Sequence record: PZ386953.1
Direction: 5' to 3' (one strand)
DNA from: a phage
DNA: 64,000 bases
Positions 4,366-64,000 of the stretch are shown here, piece after piece (the stretch's first letter is position 1; every line of letters begins with the position of its first letter). Below the pieces are notes generated by a model. The model was not told the origin of the DNA and ran no database searches. It saw nothing but the letters and a program-made list of their open reading frames with translations. Both the position numbers and the translations under genes were made by a program.

Positions 4366-7300
4366 ATGCTTCCAATCCCTTTGCTAAAACTTGGTCGTCA
4401 TTTCCTCGATAAGAGGGGTGGAATTAAGGAACTTGCTGTTCTGTCATACCCAATAGACAACAGTGATGGTACAAGCAATACAGTATCCTATGTAAATAGC
4501 TTAGCTATACTTTTTGATGATGGTCAGCTTAATATTACTGGTTATAATAGGTTCGGAGAGTGTCGGACTGGAGATCTTGATACAATAAACTATCCTAATG
4601 AGGCAGCTTGGAACGTAGACCATGTTTGGAGAGCTGACCGTGCATTTGTAATCCGCACATTCGATAATAAATTTTTCTATATTGGTTGCACAGCTGGTCT
4701 TATCGGATCGGAGGCAGCAGGTGGAAACGATGTTTGTGTCAGAGAGTGGACACCTTTGCCGGAACAGATCGTAACAGGGTTGCATTTGGACACCCATCCT
4801 GAGAGACTTGTTGAAGTAATGGGTGGCGTAAACAATACAGTGTGGGTAATTGCTGCACCAGAGGCTGATGGTATGCTTCACCTGTACGGCTCTGGCAATA
4901 ATACTTACGGCTCTCTTCATGTTGACAAAAATCAACACGCTACTCCAGTTAAGATTGGTGAAACATCTGAAAGTCCAGAGACAGGTCCTTGGAAAAACCC
5001 AAGAATTAATTGTGAAGTTCATGACAACTCGGTTATTTTTGGTGGTCCTAACGGATTCTGGATTGCAGGTTACGATTTCTTAAGAAATAACAGCAAAAAC
5101 ACACTAATTTATCCAGCCGAGCATGCGACTCTTGACCAGTTTAAAGGCATCTCGGTGGGCGAGACATGGAAAGGGTTTATGTGTGGACCTAATGGTGCAA
5201 TTATAGCCACAGAAAGGATGCACAAACCTGATGACCAACAGCTTGTTAATGTGTTTTATGGTCAGGATGTTTGGGGTGACGACACGTGGAGAAGCCTTAA
5301 CATCACCTATACCCATGAAGTAATTATGGCTCGCGGGTACGGGACTAGTGGAATTTTCTTCAATAATGGTACAAAACAGTACCGTGGTTTCTCCAGAAAC
5401 CTGTGTAACGATATTGGTGCTCAATCTGCTAATAATAATCCTAGGGCCAATTTTATTCATTACAGAGCGCTGGCAACAGCTAAGTTTGTTGAACAGACAG
5501 AGCCAGTAAGCTGGACAGAAAGCGTTTATTTTCAAGGGATCCACAGGGAAGGTTTCTTAGGCACATTCTGTGTGGTAAATGGAAAGCTTTGGTGGTCAGG
5601 TATCCCAAGGGGCAGTTTTTCAGGCTCTAATAACCTGTTCGGCGGCAGACTTAACAGCCAAGGGTTCACAGAGATTCCTGAGAATTGGTATAAAAATGTT
5701 CCGGTAGATAGCTGGAGTATCGAAGACATCTTTGATGTCAATGGTGTAAGCAGTGTTAGCAATATATACATTGGCGACACTGTCAAAATGAAGTTGAAAC
5801 CTCAACCGGAGGGTGCTACGTTCATTATTGACAAGATTGAGCTCGTGAACGCTGCAGGTACTGTTGTTACAGATGCAAACTATCAGTTCTCTACTAGCTG
5901 GAACCATGGCGGTGCTAACGAGGTTGTGGTTACCCAGCATAACCGTAACATCAACAGACGCGGTCTGTATTCTGTCAAGATCACCTATCATGATAAACAT
6001 GGCGCTGGAAGAACCCACACCACACGAAACTTAAACTGGAACATTGTAGTTCCTGCATATCCGTCAGACGGCAAATGGCACACTGTTGGCAGGAAGAAAC
6101 AGTTCCATGTAAACGATACTGTATACTTTGGGCTTAACGGCTCTCAGCCTGCTCCAGAAAGCGATACAGCATATATGGTTAGGCTTCACAGGCAAGATGC
6201 CGGATCTACCACGTATGATGTGACCCAGGAGATCTACGACCAGAGACGCAGTATCTATGACAATCTTGTGAAAACACAAGCCTTGTGGGAGTTCAACCCT
6301 AACGGCAAAGGCGGGAAGATGCTGCAGGTTAACGAGCAGAACGGAACATCGTTAACAGTGCACGAGCATGCTGATCCATGGCCTGATCCTGGTAAGCCTA
6401 ACCCAGGTGCTCGCACACTGAAAGTTGTTAGCCACAACGCAGGGTATTTCGGGATACGTTGGGAAGCTACAGTAAAATATGTTGATGGAACAACAAACAA
6501 TATAGGTATTACTCTGGGTGGTACCAGTGAAGATAGTTCTCTGAAAATTGCCTACACCCCTAGAGGCATCTCTATTGACAATATGGATATAGTTCGTAAC
6601 GGTTACGGTGATGTAAACATCAAAGTTACCCTCGGTGAACATCTTGGTGGAGAAAGGATCATCATGTATGCCTTTGACCATGATCCTCGCACCAATGGAA
6701 CCTATGCAAATCAGGCGTGGAGTTACCTGATAAATGCACCTGAGCCAAATACTAAAGAGTTTTATTATGGTATGAAGCGCGATGTGTGCAAGAAAACAGG
6801 AACACATGACTGGATCGCTATCTGCGTTAAAGATGAGCGGACAGCTTGGGACGAGCCTGTTAACAGATGGTTCATAGGAATCCCAACCAGAAGTGATAAA
6901 TATGTCACAGAATATATTGTGTGCATGGGCGGCACCAACCTGAACCTGTGTTGGAACGAAGATGCAAACAAATATTCCGATTATGACTATATGAGAGATA
7001 TCTCTTGTAATCAGTGGTTTAACCAGACTACAGGTTACCCTCCGCGTCAGGCGAGAGTAAACCCTGCAATCTTCACAGATACGCAGGTTTTCTTGACAAA
7101 ACAGGCCAACGAGGTTCAGACCTTCAAGAACAAATACGACCCTAACAAGTGGTTTTATAACTGTTATGGCGCATTTTTCTGGGGTCCGGGGGAACTACCT
7201 AACGGGGGATCTTGCTTCGAGGCTGCAACCTATGGCAGCGACTATATTATGGGGCAAGTCAAGAAATACAAAATGATCCCTGGTCCTGAAACCCTGGGTA

Positions 7301-54497: not shown

Positions 54498-54526
54498 AGG
54501 GGCTTTAAAAGGCCCCTTTCTTTTTG
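54498..54526 (+). terminator. intrinsic terminator closing the + strand early block
   Basis: GGGGCTTT-AAAA-GGCCCC then TTTCTTTTT. Confidence 0.7.
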
Positions 54527-55129
54527 TCTGTATTTCTCCTACCACAAACGGCCCCACCTGGCAAGTGGAATAATTGACTAGCCATCAATCCCACACACTG
54601 TACAAATATACATGTAAAATAGCTATTGCATAATCTTTCATTGTGTGGTAGCAGGGCCATTTTTACACGTTTTTCCTTCCAAAATTGCACGTAATGCCGC
54701 TATTGCACAAAATTTAACCTGATGCATATCTTCAGTGTCTTGTCAACAACTAAAAATCTTTATAAGTCATACACTTACACACTCACAAAAGCGTGTTCTA
54801 CGTGAAAAATCGAGTATAACTATAGCCGCCAGATCTCAGAATTTACGTACGTTCACCATTCTATAGTCTGCTAAGTATTTATTCCAACCATAGAATAATG
54901 GAATAGTCAATACCTGCATAAAATAATTATTCGTGTAAACTGCATAACATAAATCAGCTTAGGTGTCAACATTTTTCGTAAACAGCCTGAAATTATCACG
55001 GTGAGTTATCATAAACAGAGAAATCTTTAGTCGTCTAATGTTTACTGTACATTACTATACTTACTGGAATCATTAGATGACTAAGAGAAAGATAAGAAAT
55101 AATTAACAATACAATTATTTTATCTGTAA

Positions 55130-55570
55130 CAATAAGGCAACTATGCAAACGAATGGCATGGCGCGACGGAGTCGCGACATAATATAAAAGCAGTAACCAT
55201 CACCCCCGTGATAGTTTGTCTGCAAACTATTAATCAGATCATAGTTGCCTTGTATTTAGTTAATCATGACATAACAAGCAAGGCAACTATAGATCTGCTA
55301 ATAGTTGCCCTGCTTTTATATTATGTCATATATTATTAACCTGTTAATTGTCAGCTTATTGGCTGTTAGCTTGTCAATTGTTAACTTGTTAATTGTTATC
55401 ATGCAAACGAATGTCATGGCTTATCATCTTTGTGTAAACAGTCAATCATGTAAATGATAAGTATGTGAACAGTTATCCATGTAAACTATTAGACATGTAA
55501 ACAATCAGGTGTGCAAAAGTGTCATAGTATGTCACTATTGTGTCTAAAGTGTCACCAGTATGTCAGACAA
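55130..55570. repeat. iteron-like repeat array (candidate origin / regulatory hub)
   Basis: GGCAACTAT x4 in both orientations incl. a 29-bp palindrome around AGATCT; 20-mer ATGCAAACGAATG(G/T)CATGGC x2; TTAATTGT x4; ATGTAAAC x4; TGTCA x5 phased at 9-11 bp. Confidence 0.6.
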
Positions 55571-56125
55571 GTTTTTCTCCTCTTTGTCAAGTGCTGCATG
55601 AAAAATTTACAAACTGGTATGGTAGCATTTTTGCGGCCCTGTTTACATTCAGCGATGTATGTATAAACCTTGCTGTGTGGGCGTTTAGACGTCTAGACGG
55701 TTGGAAGTCTGCAGGTCAATATCTAATCTATTGGCTGCTAACCATATCCCACACAAATAGTAATAAATATAATTGTTATATGCGTAAACAGTAACTCATG
55801 TTATCAATCCCTGTATGTATCGCCAGTGGTGCGCATAATGGGTATTATGTTAAATTGCCCGTAATGATAACTATTCTCACAATGATAGGTATTCTCATTC
55901 ACCCCCACAAGATAGGTTGCAAATGTTGTGCCACTGTGTGAACGGCCTAGCCTATTAATTTGCCTCACTGCCTTGATATTTGAGAATTGTTATAAGAATG
56001 AGAAGTATTCCCATTTCGTCCGCTTGGCAGCACTCCAGTCGCTACCGGCTCCTGACAGGGCAGCACTCCTGTCGGTCAGGTCAAAATCGTGGTATAACTG
56101 GACCTGTTCAGATATTTCTGGCTGA

Positions 56126-56664
56126 CTCTTCAGGCCTGTGTGGGAAAAGCCGACCCCTCCGGCGGCGGGGAGGGGGTCAATTAAAAAATTTACGGGGTAT
56201 ATGAAGCGCTCTTCAGGTAAGGCAGGTATTATGGGATGAAACCCTCTTCAGGTAATGATATTTGTGGGTGTGATATTTGCTGGAAAGCCAGATATTACGG
56301 GACTCCCGGCGGGGCAGGGGTGGTACAGACAGGGAAAATATGGGGATGTAGTTGGGTAAATTGATCAGACAGGTAGGGTATAGGATATGTTACAAGTATG
56401 TTAAATATGGAGGTTGAATATCTGTAAGATTTGTGTGTAAAATCAAAGACTTAAGTGGTGTTGTGGTATTTTCTATAAATAATTCAAGTTTAATAGGTGA
56501 TATTTGTCCCTATCTACTTTGTGTGGTAAACAGATTCAGATGAGATTGGTTTACGAGTGTATACATAATATACAAATTAAAGATACAAGAAACCCCCTCC
56601 CCCTTCGGCTACCATTCACCTTTTCCTCTGACTGGTACTTAAACACTTATTCAGACTCTTCAGG
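56126..56664. repeat. CTCTTCAGG motif repeats and GC-rich hairpins in ORF-free region
   Basis: CTCTTCAGG at about 56126, 56209, 56245, 56656; inverted repeat GACCCCTCC-GGCGGC-GGGGAGGGGGTC at about 56152-56178. Confidence 0.5.
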
Positions 56665-57013
56665 TTATCACCCATATATCATATGGCAGTGACTGGTGTC
56701 CTCCGGCCCCTCTTTCGTCACCCGTCCGCTTCGCCATGCTAATGCCATAGCCAAATGTTCGGTTGTTCACCATGTTCACTCAGGTGTATCTCCATACCCC
56801 TTCAAACCGAAGAGAACAGAAAACCCGAATTACTCGGTAAAAGAAAAGAGAAGAACTTAATTTTATCAGGATAGGCAAGAATGTCAAGGCATGACTGCTC
56901 ACTAAACAAGCAAACAGTCATGTGTGGAAGGTAAGTGATTGTGGTGGTGGGAAATTTAGTTGAAAGATGTATTGTAGGTGCTCCAGCACTTTAGCCGGGC
57001 AGCTAATTGTGTG

Positions 57014-57229
57014 TCAGTCCAGCGGTTCATCCTCTACTTCACTGAAATCAATGTTCATGGTCTCTTCCCAACCATCGATCTCAGCACAAGAGTGGAGTTC
57101 TTTAGGGTTTACTCCCAAAGCCTCAGCAACAGAGTCTATATTTAACACCTCTGGCAGGTATGATTCATCGAATTCCAGGTAAATCAGGCCACGAGTGTTG
57201 TCAGCTCCACCAAATATTTCTATCTTCAT
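57014..57229 (-). CDS. small acidic protein
   Basis: 71 aa, Asp/Glu-rich; SD GGAGA. Confidence 0.45.
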   Translation of the reverse strand: MKIEIFGGADNTRGLIYLEFDESYLPEVLNIDSVAEALGVNPKELHSCAEIDGWEETMNIDFSEVEDEPLD

Positions 57230-57922: not shown

Positions 57923-58234
57923 CTATACCCATGAGGGCTTATCAAGGTTGGAGTAGCTGAAAGGTGTCAAAAGGTGACTGTCAAAATCCCTCAAACTATC
58001 CAAATCTTTTTCCTCGTCCTGACACCATCTGTGCCTACATTTATTGTTGTAGTGCATAGAATGCATAGCGTTCTGCAACTTAACAGGTACAAGTGATTCA
58101 GGAGTAGATAGTATTGTTGGGTATGCCAGAATCACCTCAAACAGTGGAAACACATCGAAACTAAAGTCTACCTCTGCAGAGGTTGATGGCATATAGGAGT
58201 ATTTAGCCGCCTTTGTAGACATAATCCACCTCAC
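57923..58234 (-). CDS. hypothetical protein
   Basis: 103-aa ORF, start overlaps upstream stop. Confidence 0.4.
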   Translation of the reverse strand: MRWIMSTKAAKYSYMPSTSAEVDFSFDVFPLFEVILAYPTILSTPESLVPVKLQNAMHSMHYNNKCRHRWCQDEEKDLDSLRDFDSHLLTPFSYSNLDKPSWV

Positions 58235-58946: not shown

Positions 58947-59198
58947 TTAACGTTCTACAAAAATACCGTTCAGTTCAATAACCAGGAATTTCTGGTCTTC
59001 ACTATCGTCTCGTGCCAGCACCTCACAGACGTATCGGTCATCCACATCATCATCGCAGTCAAATACAAGACTGAGGACTTTATCATGGTAAACCTTCGCC
59101 ACTACCGCCTCGTAAGTATTGCCGATTGTGAATCCAAGATAATCTCCGATGCATTTGACAACAACATGGTCTCCAGCATTTAAGTCAATCTTCGTCAT
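58947..59198 (-). CDS. small acidic protein
   Basis: Start set to internal Met (MTKIDL) preceded by AAGGAG SD; track ORF extends to 59264. Confidence 0.45.
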   Translation of the reverse strand: MTKIDLNAGDHVVVKCIGDYLGFTIGNTYEAVVAKVYHDKVLSLVFDCDDDVDDRYVCEVLARDDSEDQKFLVIELNGIFVER

Positions 59199-59353
59199 TA
59201 CTGCGCTCCTTGGGTAATAATACTGTATGTAAAACTTTAACCAGAGATGTGAATAACGCCCCAAAACACACCGATAGCGCTAAAACAGACAAGGCCATCA
59301 TTAAAGCTTCAGTAAAATCAGTCATTCCTCACCTCTTGTTAGTCACTATACTA

Positions 59354-59617
59354 TCATTTATCCTTGTCGTCAAGAACTTTTTTAAATCTTTCAGGGATAT
59401 CTCCCGTTCTTAGATAGTTCATGACCTCGCAAGGTTCCCACTTGAATTTCTTACAGAGCAGGGCGGCTGAGATTGTTTCATTGCGAAAAGAAAGGATATT
59501 AATATCCCACTCTGAGAACCCCAACTTCCGAAGGGTAGCTACAGAAATCCTCACCGCAACCCAGCAGCAAAAACATGCAACAAACGCCACTGCTACAACC
59601 CACATCAGGATGTTCAT
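59354..59617 (-). CDS. small membrane protein
   Basis: N-terminal TM helix ILMWVVAVAFVACFCCWVAV. Confidence 0.45.
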   Translation of the reverse strand: MNILMWVVAVAFVACFCCWVAVRISVATLRKLGFSEWDINILSFRNETISAALLCKKFKWEPCEVMNYLRTGDIPERFKKVLDDKDK

Positions 59618-59706
59618 ATAAGCACCTTACTGAAATACAAGACACAGTGTTAAGGTTACTGACCAGCAAATAATTAACAGTGCCGTTGCAACCTTGGCAA
59701 GATTTA

Positions 59707-59994
59707 TCATAGTGCCTCTAAGATTTCATATCCTTCGGGTCGGAATACAAGCCACTCCGTGGCTCCGTTTGGTCGATACGCTTTATACAGAACAACCTGG
59801 TCTCGGCACATGCACATGGCTACATAGTTTTCATCCACACCTGCAGCCTGCATTGCATCTTCTTCTCCGGCAACTGCTTTGCTTACAACTTCCTTGGTAG
59901 GCAGGTGTGCGATCAGCTCGTCACCATCATTAATTCCAAAATGGCTGAGTTCGCCGTTGGTATCTTTAATCTTAATCTTAACCAGATCTTTCAT
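59707..59994 (-). CDS. small acidic protein (MK.K family)
   Basis: 95 aa; N-terminus MKDLVKIKIKD, acidic, ends YEILEAL. Confidence 0.5.
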   Translation of the reverse strand: MKDLVKIKIKDTNGELSHFGINDGDELIAHLPTKEVVSKAVAGEEDAMQAAGVDENYVAMCMCRDQVVLYKAYRPNGATEWLVFRPEGYEILEAL

Positions 59995-60323
59995 TAGTCT
60001 TCCCCCAGGTTCAAAGGTCCTAAGATTTCATATGCCAGATTAGAAGTTACAAGAGGGTCTTCTGCGTCTTTAGTATTATACCACCCGTGAATAACCAGAG
60101 TCCCACTTTGTTTCATGTCCAACTGGAACTCTTCTGCCGTTTCCTCATCCAGCTCCAAGATTTCCATAAGGTATTTGATGTTAGGGAGGTATGCAGCTGT
60201 TACAGTCCCCTCTACCAGACCTTCAGGCCAACCTACATCTGGATGACAAGTAGGAACCAGGTTGGTCAGCTTAATGGTGTACGCTTTTTCTGCACGAGCC
60301 TTCAGTAACGGGTCAATCTTCAT
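59994..60323 (-). CDS. small acidic protein (MK.K family)
   Basis: 109 aa; starts MKIDP; ATGA overlap. Confidence 0.5.
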   Translation of the reverse strand: MKIDPLLKARAEKAYTIKLTNLVPTCHPDVGWPEGLVEGTVTAAYLPNIKYLMEILELDEETAEEFQLDMKQSGTLVIHGWYNTKDAEDPLVTSNLAYEILGPLNLGED

Positions 60324-60673
60324 TATTCGTCCTCCTCTTCGGTACCTGCTTCCAGTAATAAGTTAAGAATATCTTCTGCACAAGGTTCATAGAACTCTTG
60401 GCCTTCATTATCGATGATTTTGTAGTCATCTCCACGAATAATCAGGGGATCACTCTCAAAATTATCGAGACCTTTAACAACGACAACACGATCGATTGCC
60501 ATCATTGTAAGAACTTTATCGACATCTTCCTCTGCTACACCATACTGCAGCAGAATGTCTTTGGTAGGAGGAACAGCATCCACCACAACGCCGTTACCAA
60601 AACCTTCTGGAAGTTTAGCTAAAATATCTTCCGGAACCACATTCACATCAAAACCGGTAATTTCTACTTTCAT
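60323..60673 (-). CDS. small acidic protein (MK.K family)
   Basis: 116 aa; starts MKVEITGFDV; very acidic C-terminus. Confidence 0.5.
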   Translation of the reverse strand: MKVEITGFDVNVVPEDILAKLPEGFGNGVVVDAVPPTKDILLQYGVAEEDVDKVLTMMAIDRVVVVKGLDNFESDPLIIRGDDYKIIDNEGQEFYEPCAEDILNLLLEAGTEEEDE

Positions 60674-60934
60674 TTACAGCACCTCTTCGTCAACTACTTC
60701 ATAAAAATGGCCTGGGATTGCAATAGCGTTCTCACCTTCACCTACAAACACAGTTCCGTCAAGAATCAACATCATAAGAATTTCTGTAATATCCTCTTCC
60801 GGAACGTTGCCAAAACCTTTAATCAGCTCGTAGGTTGGAATATTTACCTCTAAGATGTCACCATCTTTAGAACGGAAATCAACACCGTCCTGAATCTCTG
60901 CCGTTTCAAGGTTTTTCAATTTAATCTTCATCAA
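60674..60934 (-). CDS. small acidic protein (MK.K family)
   Basis: 86 aa; starts MMKIKLKNLE; ends YEVVDEEVL. Confidence 0.5.
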   Translation of the reverse strand: MMKIKLKNLETAEIQDGVDFRSKDGDILEVNIPTYELIKGFGNVPEEDITEILMMLILDGTVFVGEGENAIAIPGHFYEVVDEEVL

Positions 60935-61010
60935 TCGGTCCCCTGTCTTGTTAAGATGAAGGTATTATTTCACACAGGGTTGGCGTTGTCAACACCTGTG
61001 TGCAAGAAAA

Positions 61011-61406
61011 TTACTGAAACAGTGCGGATAAATTACCTTCTGGTGGGAACTTATCTGCCAAAAACGGTGTTAGCACAGTAGCCTTCTGAAGATCTGGGGT
61101 CCACTCGTTGTTCAGAACATCCCAGTAGTACGCAATGTTGCTGTGTGGGTGCCGCATTACGAACTTTTTCCCTTCGTAGTCATCTGAAACCTCTACAGAA
61201 GAAATAACAACAGAATCTTCAAGGGTTTCTTCATAGAAAGATCCACCTTCAAATTTCCAACGAGATGCAAGAGCCCCTGCCTTGAACGCTGCAGATAACG
61301 GACTGTCGGCAAGAACATACATTTCTTGCACTCTGTCGCTGCGATCTTTGCTTCTTACGTTGTATACAGTATCTGAGCTATACTCAACACGGTATAGGCT
61401 TACCAT
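61011..61406 (-). CDS. family B paralog (131 aa)
   Basis: HPHSNIAYYWDVLNNEWTP aligns with HPDSRVKHYWNARTKTWTP of gene 63218-63616. Confidence 0.5.
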   Translation of the reverse strand: MVSLYRVEYSSDTVYNVRSKDRSDRVQEMYVLADSPLSAAFKAGALASRWKFEGGSFYEETLEDSVVISSVEVSDDYEGKKFVMRHPHSNIAYYWDVLNNEWTPDLQKATVLTPFLADKFPPEGNLSALFQ

Positions 61407-61765
61407 TACCGCACCTCCTCAATAACTTCCACATCTGAACCTACCACAAATGCAAAAGGACAGGTTTCATGAAAGATATCCGGATCGCCGCCAAGCTTGC
61501 TAACAATTTCTCCACCACTAATAAACACAAGCTCACCGATATTCATCAGATTGCTGAAATAGTACCCATAATGATTAAAGAATGCAGCAGGGTCAGGTAG
61601 ACTAGTAGCCTCAAGCACTACATCGGTTGAGGTTACTTTCTTATCATAACCTCTCGCCTTTTGAGATGCAAGATCTGCAGAATCCTCAGGCGACCGGAGA
61701 TGCACAGGAATTGTTTCACCAATAAAGCGTACTTTCATATTATCACCCAACAACCATAGCTTCAA
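61406..61765 (-). CDS. family A paralog (119 aa)
   Basis: C-terminal PFAFVVGSDVEVIEE aligns with YAFGVGSDADIVEL (63629-63883) and the partial gene at the window edge. Confidence 0.5.
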   Translation of the reverse strand: MKLWLLGDNMKVRFIGETIPVHLRSPEDSADLASQKARGYDKKVTSTDVVLEATSLPDPAAFFNHYGYYFSNLMNIGELVFISGGEIVSKLGGDPDIFHETCPFAFVVGSDVEVIEEVR

Positions 61766-62006
61766 AAGGAGTCATGAACGAATAAACGGCATCATCATCT
61801 GCTTCAGGGAATGCTCCCAAAGACTTCATATCTGAGCCCTTGACAAATACAAGGTTTTGATCAAAGGCTTCTTGGGGGTCAATCCGATACATATTTCGTA
61901 AAATATCGCTTACCTCCTCATCAAGAGGTGAGTATGCTGTGCACGTTTTTCCGATCAAGCTTTGAGAATCAGGGTATCCACCTGAAGTTTTAAAATAAAC
62001 AATCAT
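61743..62006 (-). CDS. hypothetical protein
   Basis: 87-aa ORF. Confidence 0.45.
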   Translation of the reverse strand: MIVYFKTSGGYPDSQSLIGKTCTAYSPLDEEVSDILRNMYRIDPQEAFDQNLVFVKGSDMKSLGAFPEADDDAVYSFMTPFEAMVVG

Positions 62007-62097
62007 ATAGTATCACCTCTGGTAAGAGATTGGGACTCCTTTCCCACAAATAATTACAAATCTTCCTTAGCGAGGAAGTATGCTAATCCAAGCAGGA

Positions 62098-62367
62098 TTA
62101 TTCCTCTACAATCTCATACACATCAGGAGTTACAATCAACTCTTCTCCGTTACCCGGTGCAACAAACACCACCAAACCTTCAGGTGTGTGCTTTTTAGCC
62201 ATCTCGATAACATCTTCTCGCAGAGCTGGCTCCATCAGATCAAAACCTTCACCTAGGGCATCACGAACCACCTTCATATAGTCCACTGGTTGTGCTTCAA
62301 CAATCATGCCTTCAACCAGTCCACAATTTTTGTCTGCCAGCTCAGTTTGGAATAATTTAATTTTCAT
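62098..62367 (-). CDS. small acidic protein (MK.K family)
   Basis: 89 aa; starts MKIKLFQTE; ends VYEIVEE; about 22 percent Asp+Glu. Confidence 0.5.
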   Translation of the reverse strand: MKIKLFQTELADKNCGLVEGMIVEAQPVDYMKVVRDALGEGFDLMEPALREDVIEMAKKHTPEGLVVFVAPGNGEELIVTPDVYEIVEE

Positions 62368-62504
62368 TTAGAGGTCTCCTCAATTATTTGATATTAATAG
62401 CCGTAACCTAACACATTAACTACAACTGCGATTGCAAACATAATTTCAAAGCATGCAATCTCTACATTTGGGACTAATTTCTTAATCACACCCATTGTAG
62501 CACC

Positions 62505-62825
62505 TCATTCTCCAAAGTCAATCTTTACTTTGCCTTTCCCCTTACCTTTCTTTCCACCGCATTTAGCCAGCTGACGTGCTGCAACATCTACCATACGGTC
62601 AGTTGCCTCGTAAGCATCACTGCCTTTAGCCTTGGCAATAACTTCTTTTCCAGAATTGTCAAAAATGAACGCCATAACTTCCTGGTGATCATTTTCAACT
62701 TTTACACTCACACGTGCATAGTTAACAGAGGGATGTAAACGCTCCAGCTTGGACATTTTGCGGGAAATAAAAGATACCATACCTTCTGTGATTTCTACAT
62801 TGTTGCCAGTGATTTCAATTTGCAT
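62505..62825 (-). CDS. hpf: ribosome hibernation promoting factor / RaiA (YfiA) family homolog
   Basis: N-terminus MQIEITGNNVEITEG nearly identical to the start of enterobacterial HPF as I recall it; AARQLAK motif; about 106 aa with basic KKGKGKGK tail. Confidence 0.75.
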   Translation of the reverse strand: MQIEITGNNVEITEGMVSFISRKMSKLERLHPSVNYARVSVKVENDHQEVMAFIFDNSGKEVIAKAKGSDAYEATDRMVDVAARQLAKCGGKKGKGKGKVKIDFGE

Positions 62826-62909
62826 AACGTGTTCCTTTTAAGGAAGAGGGAATAACTATCTCTCTTTGAAAACAATGATACTAAATCTGAAGCGTTGTGT
62901 CAACAGTTT

Positions 62910-63200
62910 TTACAGCTTGTTGTCGATAGTTTTTAAAATATCCACAGCAAGATCTGCCATTTTTCGAACATACTCTGCAAACTCAACAGGATCCTTGATC
63001 AAAGAATTCACAGGGTCGTACCCTAGAGCGTTTAAAATGGCTGCAGCATCTACAACCTTCTCATCATTTGCGAAGATCTCTCCGTCAAACTTGTAGGTCC
63101 ATTTTGAGTCAACCTTAGCAGAGCAGGGTTTGTCCATGCTTGTTACACCATCGTCTTTAAACTCTCCTGCGTTATCAATATTTAGAATTAAATCCATCAT
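62910..63200 (-). CDS. hypothetical protein
   Basis: 96-aa ORF. Confidence 0.45.
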   Translation of the reverse strand: MMDLILNIDNAGEFKDDGVTSMDKPCSAKVDSKWTYKFDGEIFANDEKVVDAAAILNALGYDPVNSLIKDPVEFAEYVRKMADLAVDILKTIDNKL

Positions 63201-63217
63201 GGTGACACCTCACTGTT

Positions 63218-63616
63218 TCAGTTTAGCTTTTCTTCAACAACCCCATAACTTGGGGCAGAGTCAAGAGCTTTCTGGTTTAAAAGTGGCGTAGCAGAATCTG
63301 CAAACGGTGTCCAAGTTTTTGTTCTGGCATTCCAGTAATGCTTCACTCTGGAATCTGGATGCACTATAACAAAAACTTTTTCACTTGTCAACACATTAAT
63401 TTCTTCTACACCCTTGCTGATAATTTCTCCGTCATAGCCCCCAGTCTGGTATCCTTCGTACCAGGTTCTTGCATAGGCATAGCCAGCCTGCCAGCATGCA
63501 GCCTCCTCCGAGGTGGAGACTACGTAGAAGTCTTTCTCAAATTCTGGAATACGCCCTTGCTTTACGCTCCAAGCCCCGCGAATTTTCATTGTAACTTTAA
63601 ACAGTTTATTTTTCAC
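63218..63616 (-). CDS. family B paralog (132 aa)
   Basis: Paralogous to 61011-61406. Confidence 0.5.
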   Translation of the reverse strand: MKNKLFKVTMKIRGAWSVKQGRIPEFEKDFYVVSTSEEAACWQAGYAYARTWYEGYQTGGYDGEIISKGVEEINVLTSEKVFVIVHPDSRVKHYWNARTKTWTPFADSATPLLNQKALDSAPSYGVVEEKLN

Positions 63617-63628
63617 AACGGTTACCCA

Positions 63629-63883
63629 TCACAGCTCTACAATATCTGCATCTGACCCTACCCCAAAGGCATAGTAGGACTCTTCCCCGAAATAATATTC
63701 AGGTGCACCAGCGGTGATCAGGTCTGATCCCAAGATAAACACCACGTTGTGGCCTACATAACTGTGATGTTGCCGCACAGGATCATCCCACGGCAACCCT
63801 TCAAAGTATACCGCAGGAACGACCTTTCCATTCAGGAAGGATTGTCCCAAGTAGACGTTAGAATCAAGAATTTTAACCTTCAT
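63629..63883 (-). CDS. family A paralog (84 aa)
   Basis: Paralogous to 61406-61765. Confidence 0.5.
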   Translation of the reverse strand: MKVKILDSNVYLGQSFLNGKVVPAVYFEGLPWDDPVRQHHSYVGHNVVFILGSDLITAGAPEYYFGEESYYAFGVGSDADIVEL

Positions 63884-64000
63884 GATCGTCCTCCACTACC
63901 TCTACATCCTCACCTAGGGCAAAGTTATAGGTCCACTGACTGTCAAAGCATTCCTGAGATGCACCAGCGGCAATAAGATCTGCTCCTTTTATTTTTAAAA
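63873..64000 (-). CDS. family A paralog, 3' end (partial; start beyond window edge)
   Basis: Frame open to window edge; C-terminus ADLIAAGASQECFDSQWTYNFALGEDVEVVEDDHEG aligns with SDLITAGAPEYYFGEESYYAFGVGSDADIVEL. Confidence 0.4.
   Translation of the reverse strand, partial: LKIKGADLIAAGASQECFDSQWTYNFALGEDVEVVEDDHEG

Follow-up and report, generated by a model that had tools for sequence, protein, structure and literature searches.

Why does a phage keep two copies of one set of small genes, in a region that also holds an array of small, very acidic ones? The question is raised by positions 59,707 to 64,000 of a 64,000-nucleotide (nt) phage sequence (record PZ386953.1; this whole stretch is called the window below), where the initial annotation, made from the letters and their translations, described a duplicated two-gene module and an expanded family of small acidic proteins on the minus strand. 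The reading we favour, with somewhat more confidence than doubt, is that rV5-like phages have here a conserved block of accessory genes that were duplicated long ago, and that one protein family (B) and one copy of the module (module 2) play a host-specific role, probably in counter-defence. The 11 "hypothetical proteins" of the locus are reduced to three families, A, B, and C, and one recurring predicted fold.

Among phages of Escherichia coli, the rV5-like group is one of the most often isolated, and it serves in biocontrol and in therapy cocktails; roughly two thirds of its genes are of unknown function. In the genus Vequintavirus, about 120 rV5-like E. coli phages match positions 59000–64000 of the window at 90–99.9% identity, and nucleotide identity is 99.8–99.9% to Murica (NC_041871) and to phage Bas54 of the BASEL collection (MaxBurger). 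Ten genes of the window were compared with the Bas54 proteins, the truncated open reading frame (ORF) at the edge being left out, and were identical except for one residue in one B protein; the Bas54 gene numbers are used below. All genes in question are annotated as "hypothetical protein" in the records of rV5-like phages, including Murica and MaxBurger. The ORFs listed by the initial annotation are indeed present on the minus strand, and a minus-strand cluster of about 45 small genes contains all the paralogs under study, as follows (pI, isoelectric point).

63873–64000, minus strand: family A, module 1 copy 1 (bas54_0159, ortholog of Murica gp151); the C-terminal 41 codons of a 74-residue gene that leaves the window
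63629–63883, minus strand: family A, module 1 copy 2 (bas54_0158); 84 residues, pI 4.49, predicted SH3-like mini-barrel
63218–63616, minus strand: family B, module 1 (bas54_0157); 132 residues, GTG start, pI 7.78
62098–62367, minus strand: family C, solitary gene (bas54_0153); 89 residues, pI 4.34
61743–62006, minus strand: family A, module 2 copy 1 (bas54_0152); 87 residues
61406–61738, minus strand: family A, module 2 copy 2 (bas54_0151); 110 residues from the ATG at 61738
61011–61406, minus strand: family B, module 2 (bas54_0150); 131 residues, pI 4.74, start overlapping the upstream stop
60674–60931, minus strand: family C, array gene 1 (bas54_0149); 85 residues, pI 4.08
60323–60673, minus strand: family C, array gene 2 (bas54_0148); 116 residues
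59994–60323, minus strand: family C, array gene 3 (bas54_0147); 109 residues
59707–59994, minus strand: family C, array gene 4 (bas54_0146, Murica gene 138); 95 residues
63873→63218, minus strand: module 1, A-A-B (63873+ / 63629–63883 / 63218–63616)
62006→61011, minus strand: module 2, A-A-B (61743–62006 / 61406–61738 / 61011–61406)

The pair 63629–63883/63218–63616 had been said to recur downstream, and this holds for both partners. The two B proteins share 28% identity over 119 residues (BLASTP E value 3e-10 in a small local database; hhalign probability 95%), and both match phrog_7379 of PHROGs over their full length (E values 4e-74 and 2e-66). When 1.84 billion representative proteins were searched exhaustively with HMMER for family B, five true relatives came out, all from these phage lineages. 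Three further matches were repeat proteins and proved spurious on inspection; two metagenome loci considered as the home of a distant B homolog gave weak, unrelated similarity that family models did not confirm, and its contig was located by exact sequence match. Sequence searches of Pfam, NCBIfam, and the Protein Data Bank (PDB) detected no relative of family B. The A proteins of the pair (63629–63883 and 61406–61738) are 38% identical over the C-terminal ~40 residues and have the MKV(K/R) start in common (BLASTP E value 4e-4). The 61406–61738 protein carries a long insert, and its N-terminal strand and C-terminal ~40 residues match family A (leave-one-out profile score 40.4, probability 92.7%). 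The third copy proposed at the window edge is likewise genuine: the 41 residues that are visible of the 74-residue protein are 40% identical to the 63629 ORF (E value 2e-14; leave-one-out hhalign probability 99.7%). Adding 61743–62006 (leave-one-out hhalign score 51.1, 96%; z score 18.9 against shuffles) brings family A to four members within the window; one more lies just beyond it (Murica gp164). Leave-one-out profile tests with hhalign gave scores of 40–126 and probabilities of 93–99.7% for the family, whose pI values are 4.09–4.65.

Five genes make up family C: a tandem run of four (60931→59707) and the solitary 62098–62367. The proteins have pI values of 4.05–4.68, net charges of −7 to −21, and up to 25% Asp+Glu; the highest Asp+Glu content and the most negative net charge are those of 60323–60673 (Asp+Glu 25%, net charge −21), which bears an acidic tail at its C-terminus. 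Pairwise similarity within the family is weak (BLASTP E values from 2e-4 to >1). When each member was compared with the profile of the other four, the scores were 26.7–38.4, among them 38.4 for 59707–59994 (91%; z score 16.9), 36.9 for 60323–60673 (88%), 35.7 for 62098–62367 (86%; z score 12.7), and 35.3 for 59994–60323 (84%; z score 10.6). Of 37 other proteins in the cluster, several just as acidic, the top scorer reached 19. Column shuffles that keep composition and conservation averaged ~10 with a maximum of 21.6, giving z scores of 7.6–16.9 for family C and of 7.6–18.9 overall. Since the family C scores exceed both the cluster background and the shuffles, the similarity is real and not compositional. 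The grouping of the five acidic ORFs in the initial annotation thus stands, and the outcome it had named as fatal, resemblance among the paralogs in composition only, was not observed. The acidic MKIEIF protein at 57014–57229 (Murica gp130), tried as a sixth member, scored 19, equal to the background. PHROGs split family A into three families and family C into five and assign them no function; the full-length matches of the locus to PHROGs have E values from 1e-32 to 1e-76. Apart from the B pair, the 63629 ORF (full-length match to phrog_5009, E value 4e-32), and the 61743 ORF (weak match to the same family, E value 1e-4), each member has a single-gene PHROG, again with no function assigned.

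The duplication described by the initial annotation is therefore sound, and its unit has to be enlarged: the repeated unit is a triplet A-A-B, since the A copy at 61743–62006 had been overlooked. The ORF limits are generally right, with two exceptions at the starts. The ATGs at 61738 and 60931 are the probable starts, not the TTGs at 61765 and 60934, because they match the family N-terminus and the GenBank annotations. Genes are closely packed, with intergenic gaps of 4 and −1 nt in module 2 and of 0, −1, and −1 nt in the C array. No DNA-level similarity was found between module 1 and module 2, which indicates that the duplication is old. The best matches across the modules follow position, pairing 61406 with 63629 and 61743 with the edge ORF, yet the two module-1 A genes are each other's closest relatives. 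Gene conversion may have blurred the history of the triplet, whether or not it was duplicated as a block; it is suggested by the recombinant copies of module-1 A genes in public data, of which one protein (P0014) is a chimera of the two adjacent genes.

Are these genes fast-changing cargo? The initial annotation had called the family diversifying, and this description, taken to mean rapid turnover or positive selection, finds no support. Ratios of nonsynonymous to synonymous substitution rates (dN/dS) between orthologs are 0.03–0.21 for every member except in one low-divergence comparison (the first C-array gene, 0.62), pointing to purifying selection. Module 2 is carried by 119 of 119 Vequintavirus records, module 1 by 116, and the C array by 118, its sole exception being a 2.7-kb partial record. 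Two divergent lineages were also found. The second lineage (IMG/VR contigs of 118–141 kb) has a syntenic cluster with one A gene, one module-1-type B gene preceded by an unrelated gene, and four tandem C genes, and is without module 2. The third (a 124-kb contig from an NCBI assembly) has five A and five C genes at 29–74% identity and only the module-2 B gene; an unrelated 96-residue gene occupies the module-1 B slot. In this lineage, a 98-residue gene with PF27050 (Phage_P22_Y8K6) stands between the module-2 B gene and the C array (L015, 8467–8763). Each paralog has its own ortholog in the divergent lineages (54–60% identical for the solitary C gene in both), and the duplications therefore predate the lineages. 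Module 2 is kept or lost whole, being present in two lineages and absent from the remaining one. In module 1, the A genes and the B gene can be found apart: B occurs without the A genes in one lineage, and the A genes occur without B in another. The paralogs are thus old, conserved core genes.

Outside these lineages, the word-indexed searches of large databases returned, besides orthologs on Vequintavirus-like contigs, only a prophage homolog of family A. This 75-residue protein (P0031) is 46% identical to gp164, represents 309 member sequences, and is encoded in E. coli lambdoid prophages (L012–L014; the gene is at 6001–6228 of L013). It is one of ~10 small accessory ORFs that have the Q antiterminator on one side and the holin/lysis genes on the other. 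Another public sequence (P0028) is a chimera with a prophage-type N-terminus and an rV5-type (gp151) C-terminus, which indicates exchange between the prophage and virulent-phage copies of family A.

What do the genes do for the phage? Transposon sequencing of Bas54 by HIDEN-SEQ (bioRxiv 10.1101/2025.11.20.689424, Extended Data Table 8) bears on this. On K-12 (Data S2), bas54_0146–0150 and 0154–0159 were classified as "Non-essential" and 0151–0153 as "Intermediate" (bioRxiv 10.1101/2025.11.20.689424), so that eight of the 11 paralogs are non-essential, three are intermediate, and none is essential. The resampling table compares K-12 with CFE311, a uropathogenic clinical E. coli isolate, and gives log2 fold changes (log2FC) of insertions. 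Insertions in all three module-2 genes were eliminated on CFE311: −6.77 for 0150 (B), −6.17 for 0151 (A), and −7.16 for 0152 (A), each with q=0. In module 1, the B gene 0157 was depleted ~4-fold (−2.14, q=0), and the changes of the A genes 0158 (−0.30) and 0159 (+0.98) were not significant. Those of the solitary C gene 0153 (−2.78) and of the C array 0146–0149 (~0) were not significant either. The suspicion of a host-takeover or anti-defence arsenal voiced in the initial annotation gains partial support from the true paralogy and from the host-specific depletion of 0150–0152 and 0157; for family C there was no effect. The most robust conclusion is that both B paralogs are important on CFE311, one of them absolutely.

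The same table includes a published precedent. The gene bas54_0140 (log2FC −5.48) is reported to be required against the predicted defense system DS-28 of CFE311 (bioRxiv 10.1101/2025.11.20.689424). Like 0150–0152, it is a small unannotated gene of the same minus-strand cluster, dispensable on K-12 and strongly depleted on CFE311. It differs in that its cognate defense has been identified and a knockout tested, and it has no sequence similarity to 0150–0152 or 0157. The HIDEN-SEQ authors validated only 0063 and 0140, the genes of their only knockouts, cloned only DS-28 and Gao_Tmn from CFE311, and did not mention 0150–0152 (bioRxiv 10.1101/2025.11.20.689424). The ortholog of 0140 is found at 57923–58222 (minus strand) of the window, 1.5 kb downstream of the paralogs.

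The module at 61011–62006 is accordingly a candidate host-specific counter-defence module, and several points weigh against taking it as more. The conditional phenotype comes from one supplementary table and was neither discussed nor followed up by its authors. The labeling of that source is inconsistent, the sheet Data S6 being titled CFE303, yet its command line names a CFE311 sample (B54_2_311). What was seen for 0152 and 0151 might stem from polarity on 0150, since the three genes are tightly coupled; strong polarity is countered by 0158, whose insertions, 12 nt upstream of 0157, were not depleted. The host determinant could be a missing or altered host factor and not a defense system. Finally, neither host revealed a phenotype for family C or for the module-1 A genes. 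As to the source itself, Data S6 (titled K-12 versus CFE303) and Data S7 (K-12 versus CFE311) have an identical command line and matching rows where compared, and the CFE303 resampling table seems to be missing from Extended Data Table 8.

Structure prediction gives some idea of what the A and C proteins may be. AlphaFold2 models were built on the family alignments; with E for strand and H for helix, the family A model (predicted local distance difference test score, pLDDT, 90.7) has the element order E-H-E-H-E-H-E-E and the family C model (pLDDT 82.8) E-H-E-H-H-E-E-E. Both are predicted to be minimal SH3-like β-barrels of 75–116 residues, with helical inserts of variable size between strands 2 and 3; the model of 60674–60931 is such a barrel with a two-helix insert. 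In these models, the conserved MKIK... start and ...YEIVEE end are predicted to form the first and last strands, which close the barrel. The profile–profile comparison of A with C was collinear and not significant (probability 7–12%), and the link between the two families is therefore one of predicted fold and topology; a common ancestry is plausible. Profile comparison did not link family B to A or C (probability 0.2%, not significant). The modeled fold can be likened to other SH3-like small β-barrels (SH3 domains, the KOW domains of Spt5/NusG, photosystem I PsaE, PetP, and PhnA-like proteins). By sequence, the proteins do not belong to the SH3 or KOW families of Pfam, and searches of Pfam (E ≤ 1), NCBIfam, and PDB sequences with single proteins and family profiles returned nothing above noise. 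A Foldseek search of BFVD with the family A model gave template modeling (TM) scores of 0.6–0.74 to small uncharacterized proteins of T4-like and other phages (RB49 Q76ZG7, Merlin, CS01, Sf20, and ZCKP1; 65–120 residues); at 16–28% sequence identity, this likeness is structural only. The match of 61743–62006 was an 87-residue protein of Shigella phage CM1 (TM score 0.74). The predicted mini-barrel may thus be a recurrent design among small phage ORFans.

The conserved end has a second side at the DNA level. At the junctions 61406, 60673/60674, 60323, and 63883, the final acidic codons of the upstream gene are also the Shine–Dalgarno sequence of the next gene, as in GAGGAGGTGCGGTAATG and GAAGAGGAGGACGAATAATG. 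With this overlap, the "...VEE" C-terminus may partly reflect translational coupling and not protein function alone.

Here, we propose how the block might work. The B proteins would be effectors that take the phage past a strain-specific barrier, most probably an immune system of CFE311, and in module 2 the B protein possibly acts with its two upstream barrels. The small acidic barrels would probably bind proteins, as adaptors or inhibitors, and the paralogs may be divided among different host targets. To judge from the promoter-like sites described below, the genes would be expressed early from host-type promoters. A bolder version, which we put forward tentatively and would sooner expect to fail than to hold, is that the 61011–62006 triplet and the B gene 63218–63616 form an undescribed counter-defence system against an immune system of uropathogenic E. 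coli, in which the inhibitor would be B, with a new fold, and the ~10 mini-barrel paralogs would be adaptors, each with a different host or defense target, of a family shared with lambdoid prophages.

The main rival explanation is that the proteins are general modulators of host takeover and physiology, tuning transcription, translation, or proteolysis, and that the strain dependence reflects host physiology. Their neighbors in the cluster include a ribosome hibernation factor homolog, a ClpP-like protease, a PhoH-like ATPase, and a DNA methyltransferase. Membership of the genus core and purifying selection, as seen here, are unusual for counter-defence loci of fast turnover; barrels of the KOW and PsaE types typically partner large cellular machines; and 0151–0153 are "Intermediate" already on K-12. 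What argues against general modulation is that the module-2 mutants were lost completely on one isolate and tolerated on K-12, which is the pattern of the validated 0140, and that family A is present in a prophage accessory region. We consider this explanation rather unlikely, though a serious competitor to the counter-defence role.

The second alternative takes the A-A-B triplet as an obligate complex in which the A barrels serve B as chaperones or antidotes, in the manner of a toxin–antitoxin or effector–chaperone system. The identical gene order in both modules, the translational coupling, the joint depletion of all three module-2 genes, and the gain or loss of module 2 as a whole would fit such a complex. 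Module 1 behaves otherwise: its B gene was depleted on CFE311 and the two A genes upstream of it were not, and the two kinds of gene occur without each other in the divergent lineages. In addition, K-12 tolerates insertions in the A genes, which gives no sign of an unneutralized toxin. An obligate complex is therefore improbable.

The initial annotation had given DNA-mimic-like acidic proteins as an example. Mimics of the Ocr, ArdA, or Arn type would block restriction enzymes or other DNA-binding defense proteins. T7 Ocr, ArdA, and T4 Arn are, like the family C proteins, small and very acidic, and are thought to be early products of virulent phages. The low pI and high Asp+Glu content of family C and the acidic tail of one member agree with the suggestion; strong acidity is shared by families A and C and not by family B (pI 4.74 and 7.78). 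Neither sequence nor fold matches the known mimics, however. The searches of Pfam, NCBIfam, and PDB sequences gave no match to them (Ocr PF08684, ArdA PF07275, and Arn), and the predicted SH3-like barrel is unlike the helical Ocr or ArdA, although mimics share no single fold and the fold by itself is thus not decisive. Moreover, the Vequintavirinae are reported to be exceptionally susceptible to restriction–modification systems (BASEL study, PMC8594841), and family C insertions had no effect on K-12 or CFE311. We regard the mimic explanation as very unlikely; a mimic role of family C toward some other DNA-binding target stays conceivable. That the ORFs are chance reading frames, or their resemblance purely compositional, as short, composition-biased, domain-less sequences annotated as hypothetical everywhere might suggest, is refuted by the low dN/dS values (bar the one low-divergence comparison), the syntenic orthologs at 29–74% identity, the shuffle z scores of 7.6–18.9, the confident structure models, and the transposon phenotypes.

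Part of this picture was already available: more than 100 records annotate the genes, as hypothetical, PHROGs group the B pair and part of family A, and the phenotype is in a public supplement. New are the complete assignment of members to families, with the links among the five A and five C members, the triplet anatomy, the shared predicted fold that would explain why the termini are conserved, the evidence that the genes are old and under purifying selection, the family A homolog in prophages, and the link to the unremarked CFE311 phenotype. One triplet and both B paralogs are thereby tied to a host-specific requirement that had gone unremarked in public data. This could reveal a new pairing of phage gene and host barrier and help explain why the broad host range of rV5-like phages fails on some isolates. 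Vequintavirus phages also come up in papers on Hachiman, anthracyclines, and O-island 172, which contain nothing on these genes.

Signals for expression were predicted in the gaps of the cluster.

60964–60992, minus strand: σ70-type promoter-like site, TTGACA, 17 nt, extended −10 TG-AATAAT (consensus match only)
62062–62078, minus strand: terminator-like hairpin (consensus match only)

The promoter-like site, a strong one by its sequence, sits in the 79-nt gap ahead of the family C array. It is enclosed by an inverted repeat, CACAGG ... CCTGTG (60955–61010, minus strand), which spans the −35 box and could be an operator or a hairpin. The terminator-like hairpin stands just after the solitary C gene, within the 91-nt gap preceding module 2. 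More generally, σ70-like promoters are predicted in the intergenic gaps of the cluster, and the rV5 genome paper reported host-type promoters genome-wide (PMC3606486); the paralogs and the timing of expression are not discussed there.

The ribosome hibernation factor homolog (HPF/RaiA, PF02482) is encoded between the two A-A-B modules, at 62505–62825 on the minus strand; it is dispensable on K-12, and all three lineages keep it. Positions ~54500–57000 of the window, where the G+C content falls to 0.37, match a ~2-kb non-coding region separating divergent gene clusters. In Bas54, this region was free of transposon insertions (bioRxiv 10.1101/2025.11.20.689424), which suggests an essential function. 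Positions 59000–64000 are also matched by 18 GenBank records named "Campylobacter phage" (MG0656xx), those listed being 98.9–99.9% identical, and the host labels of these records look doubtful.

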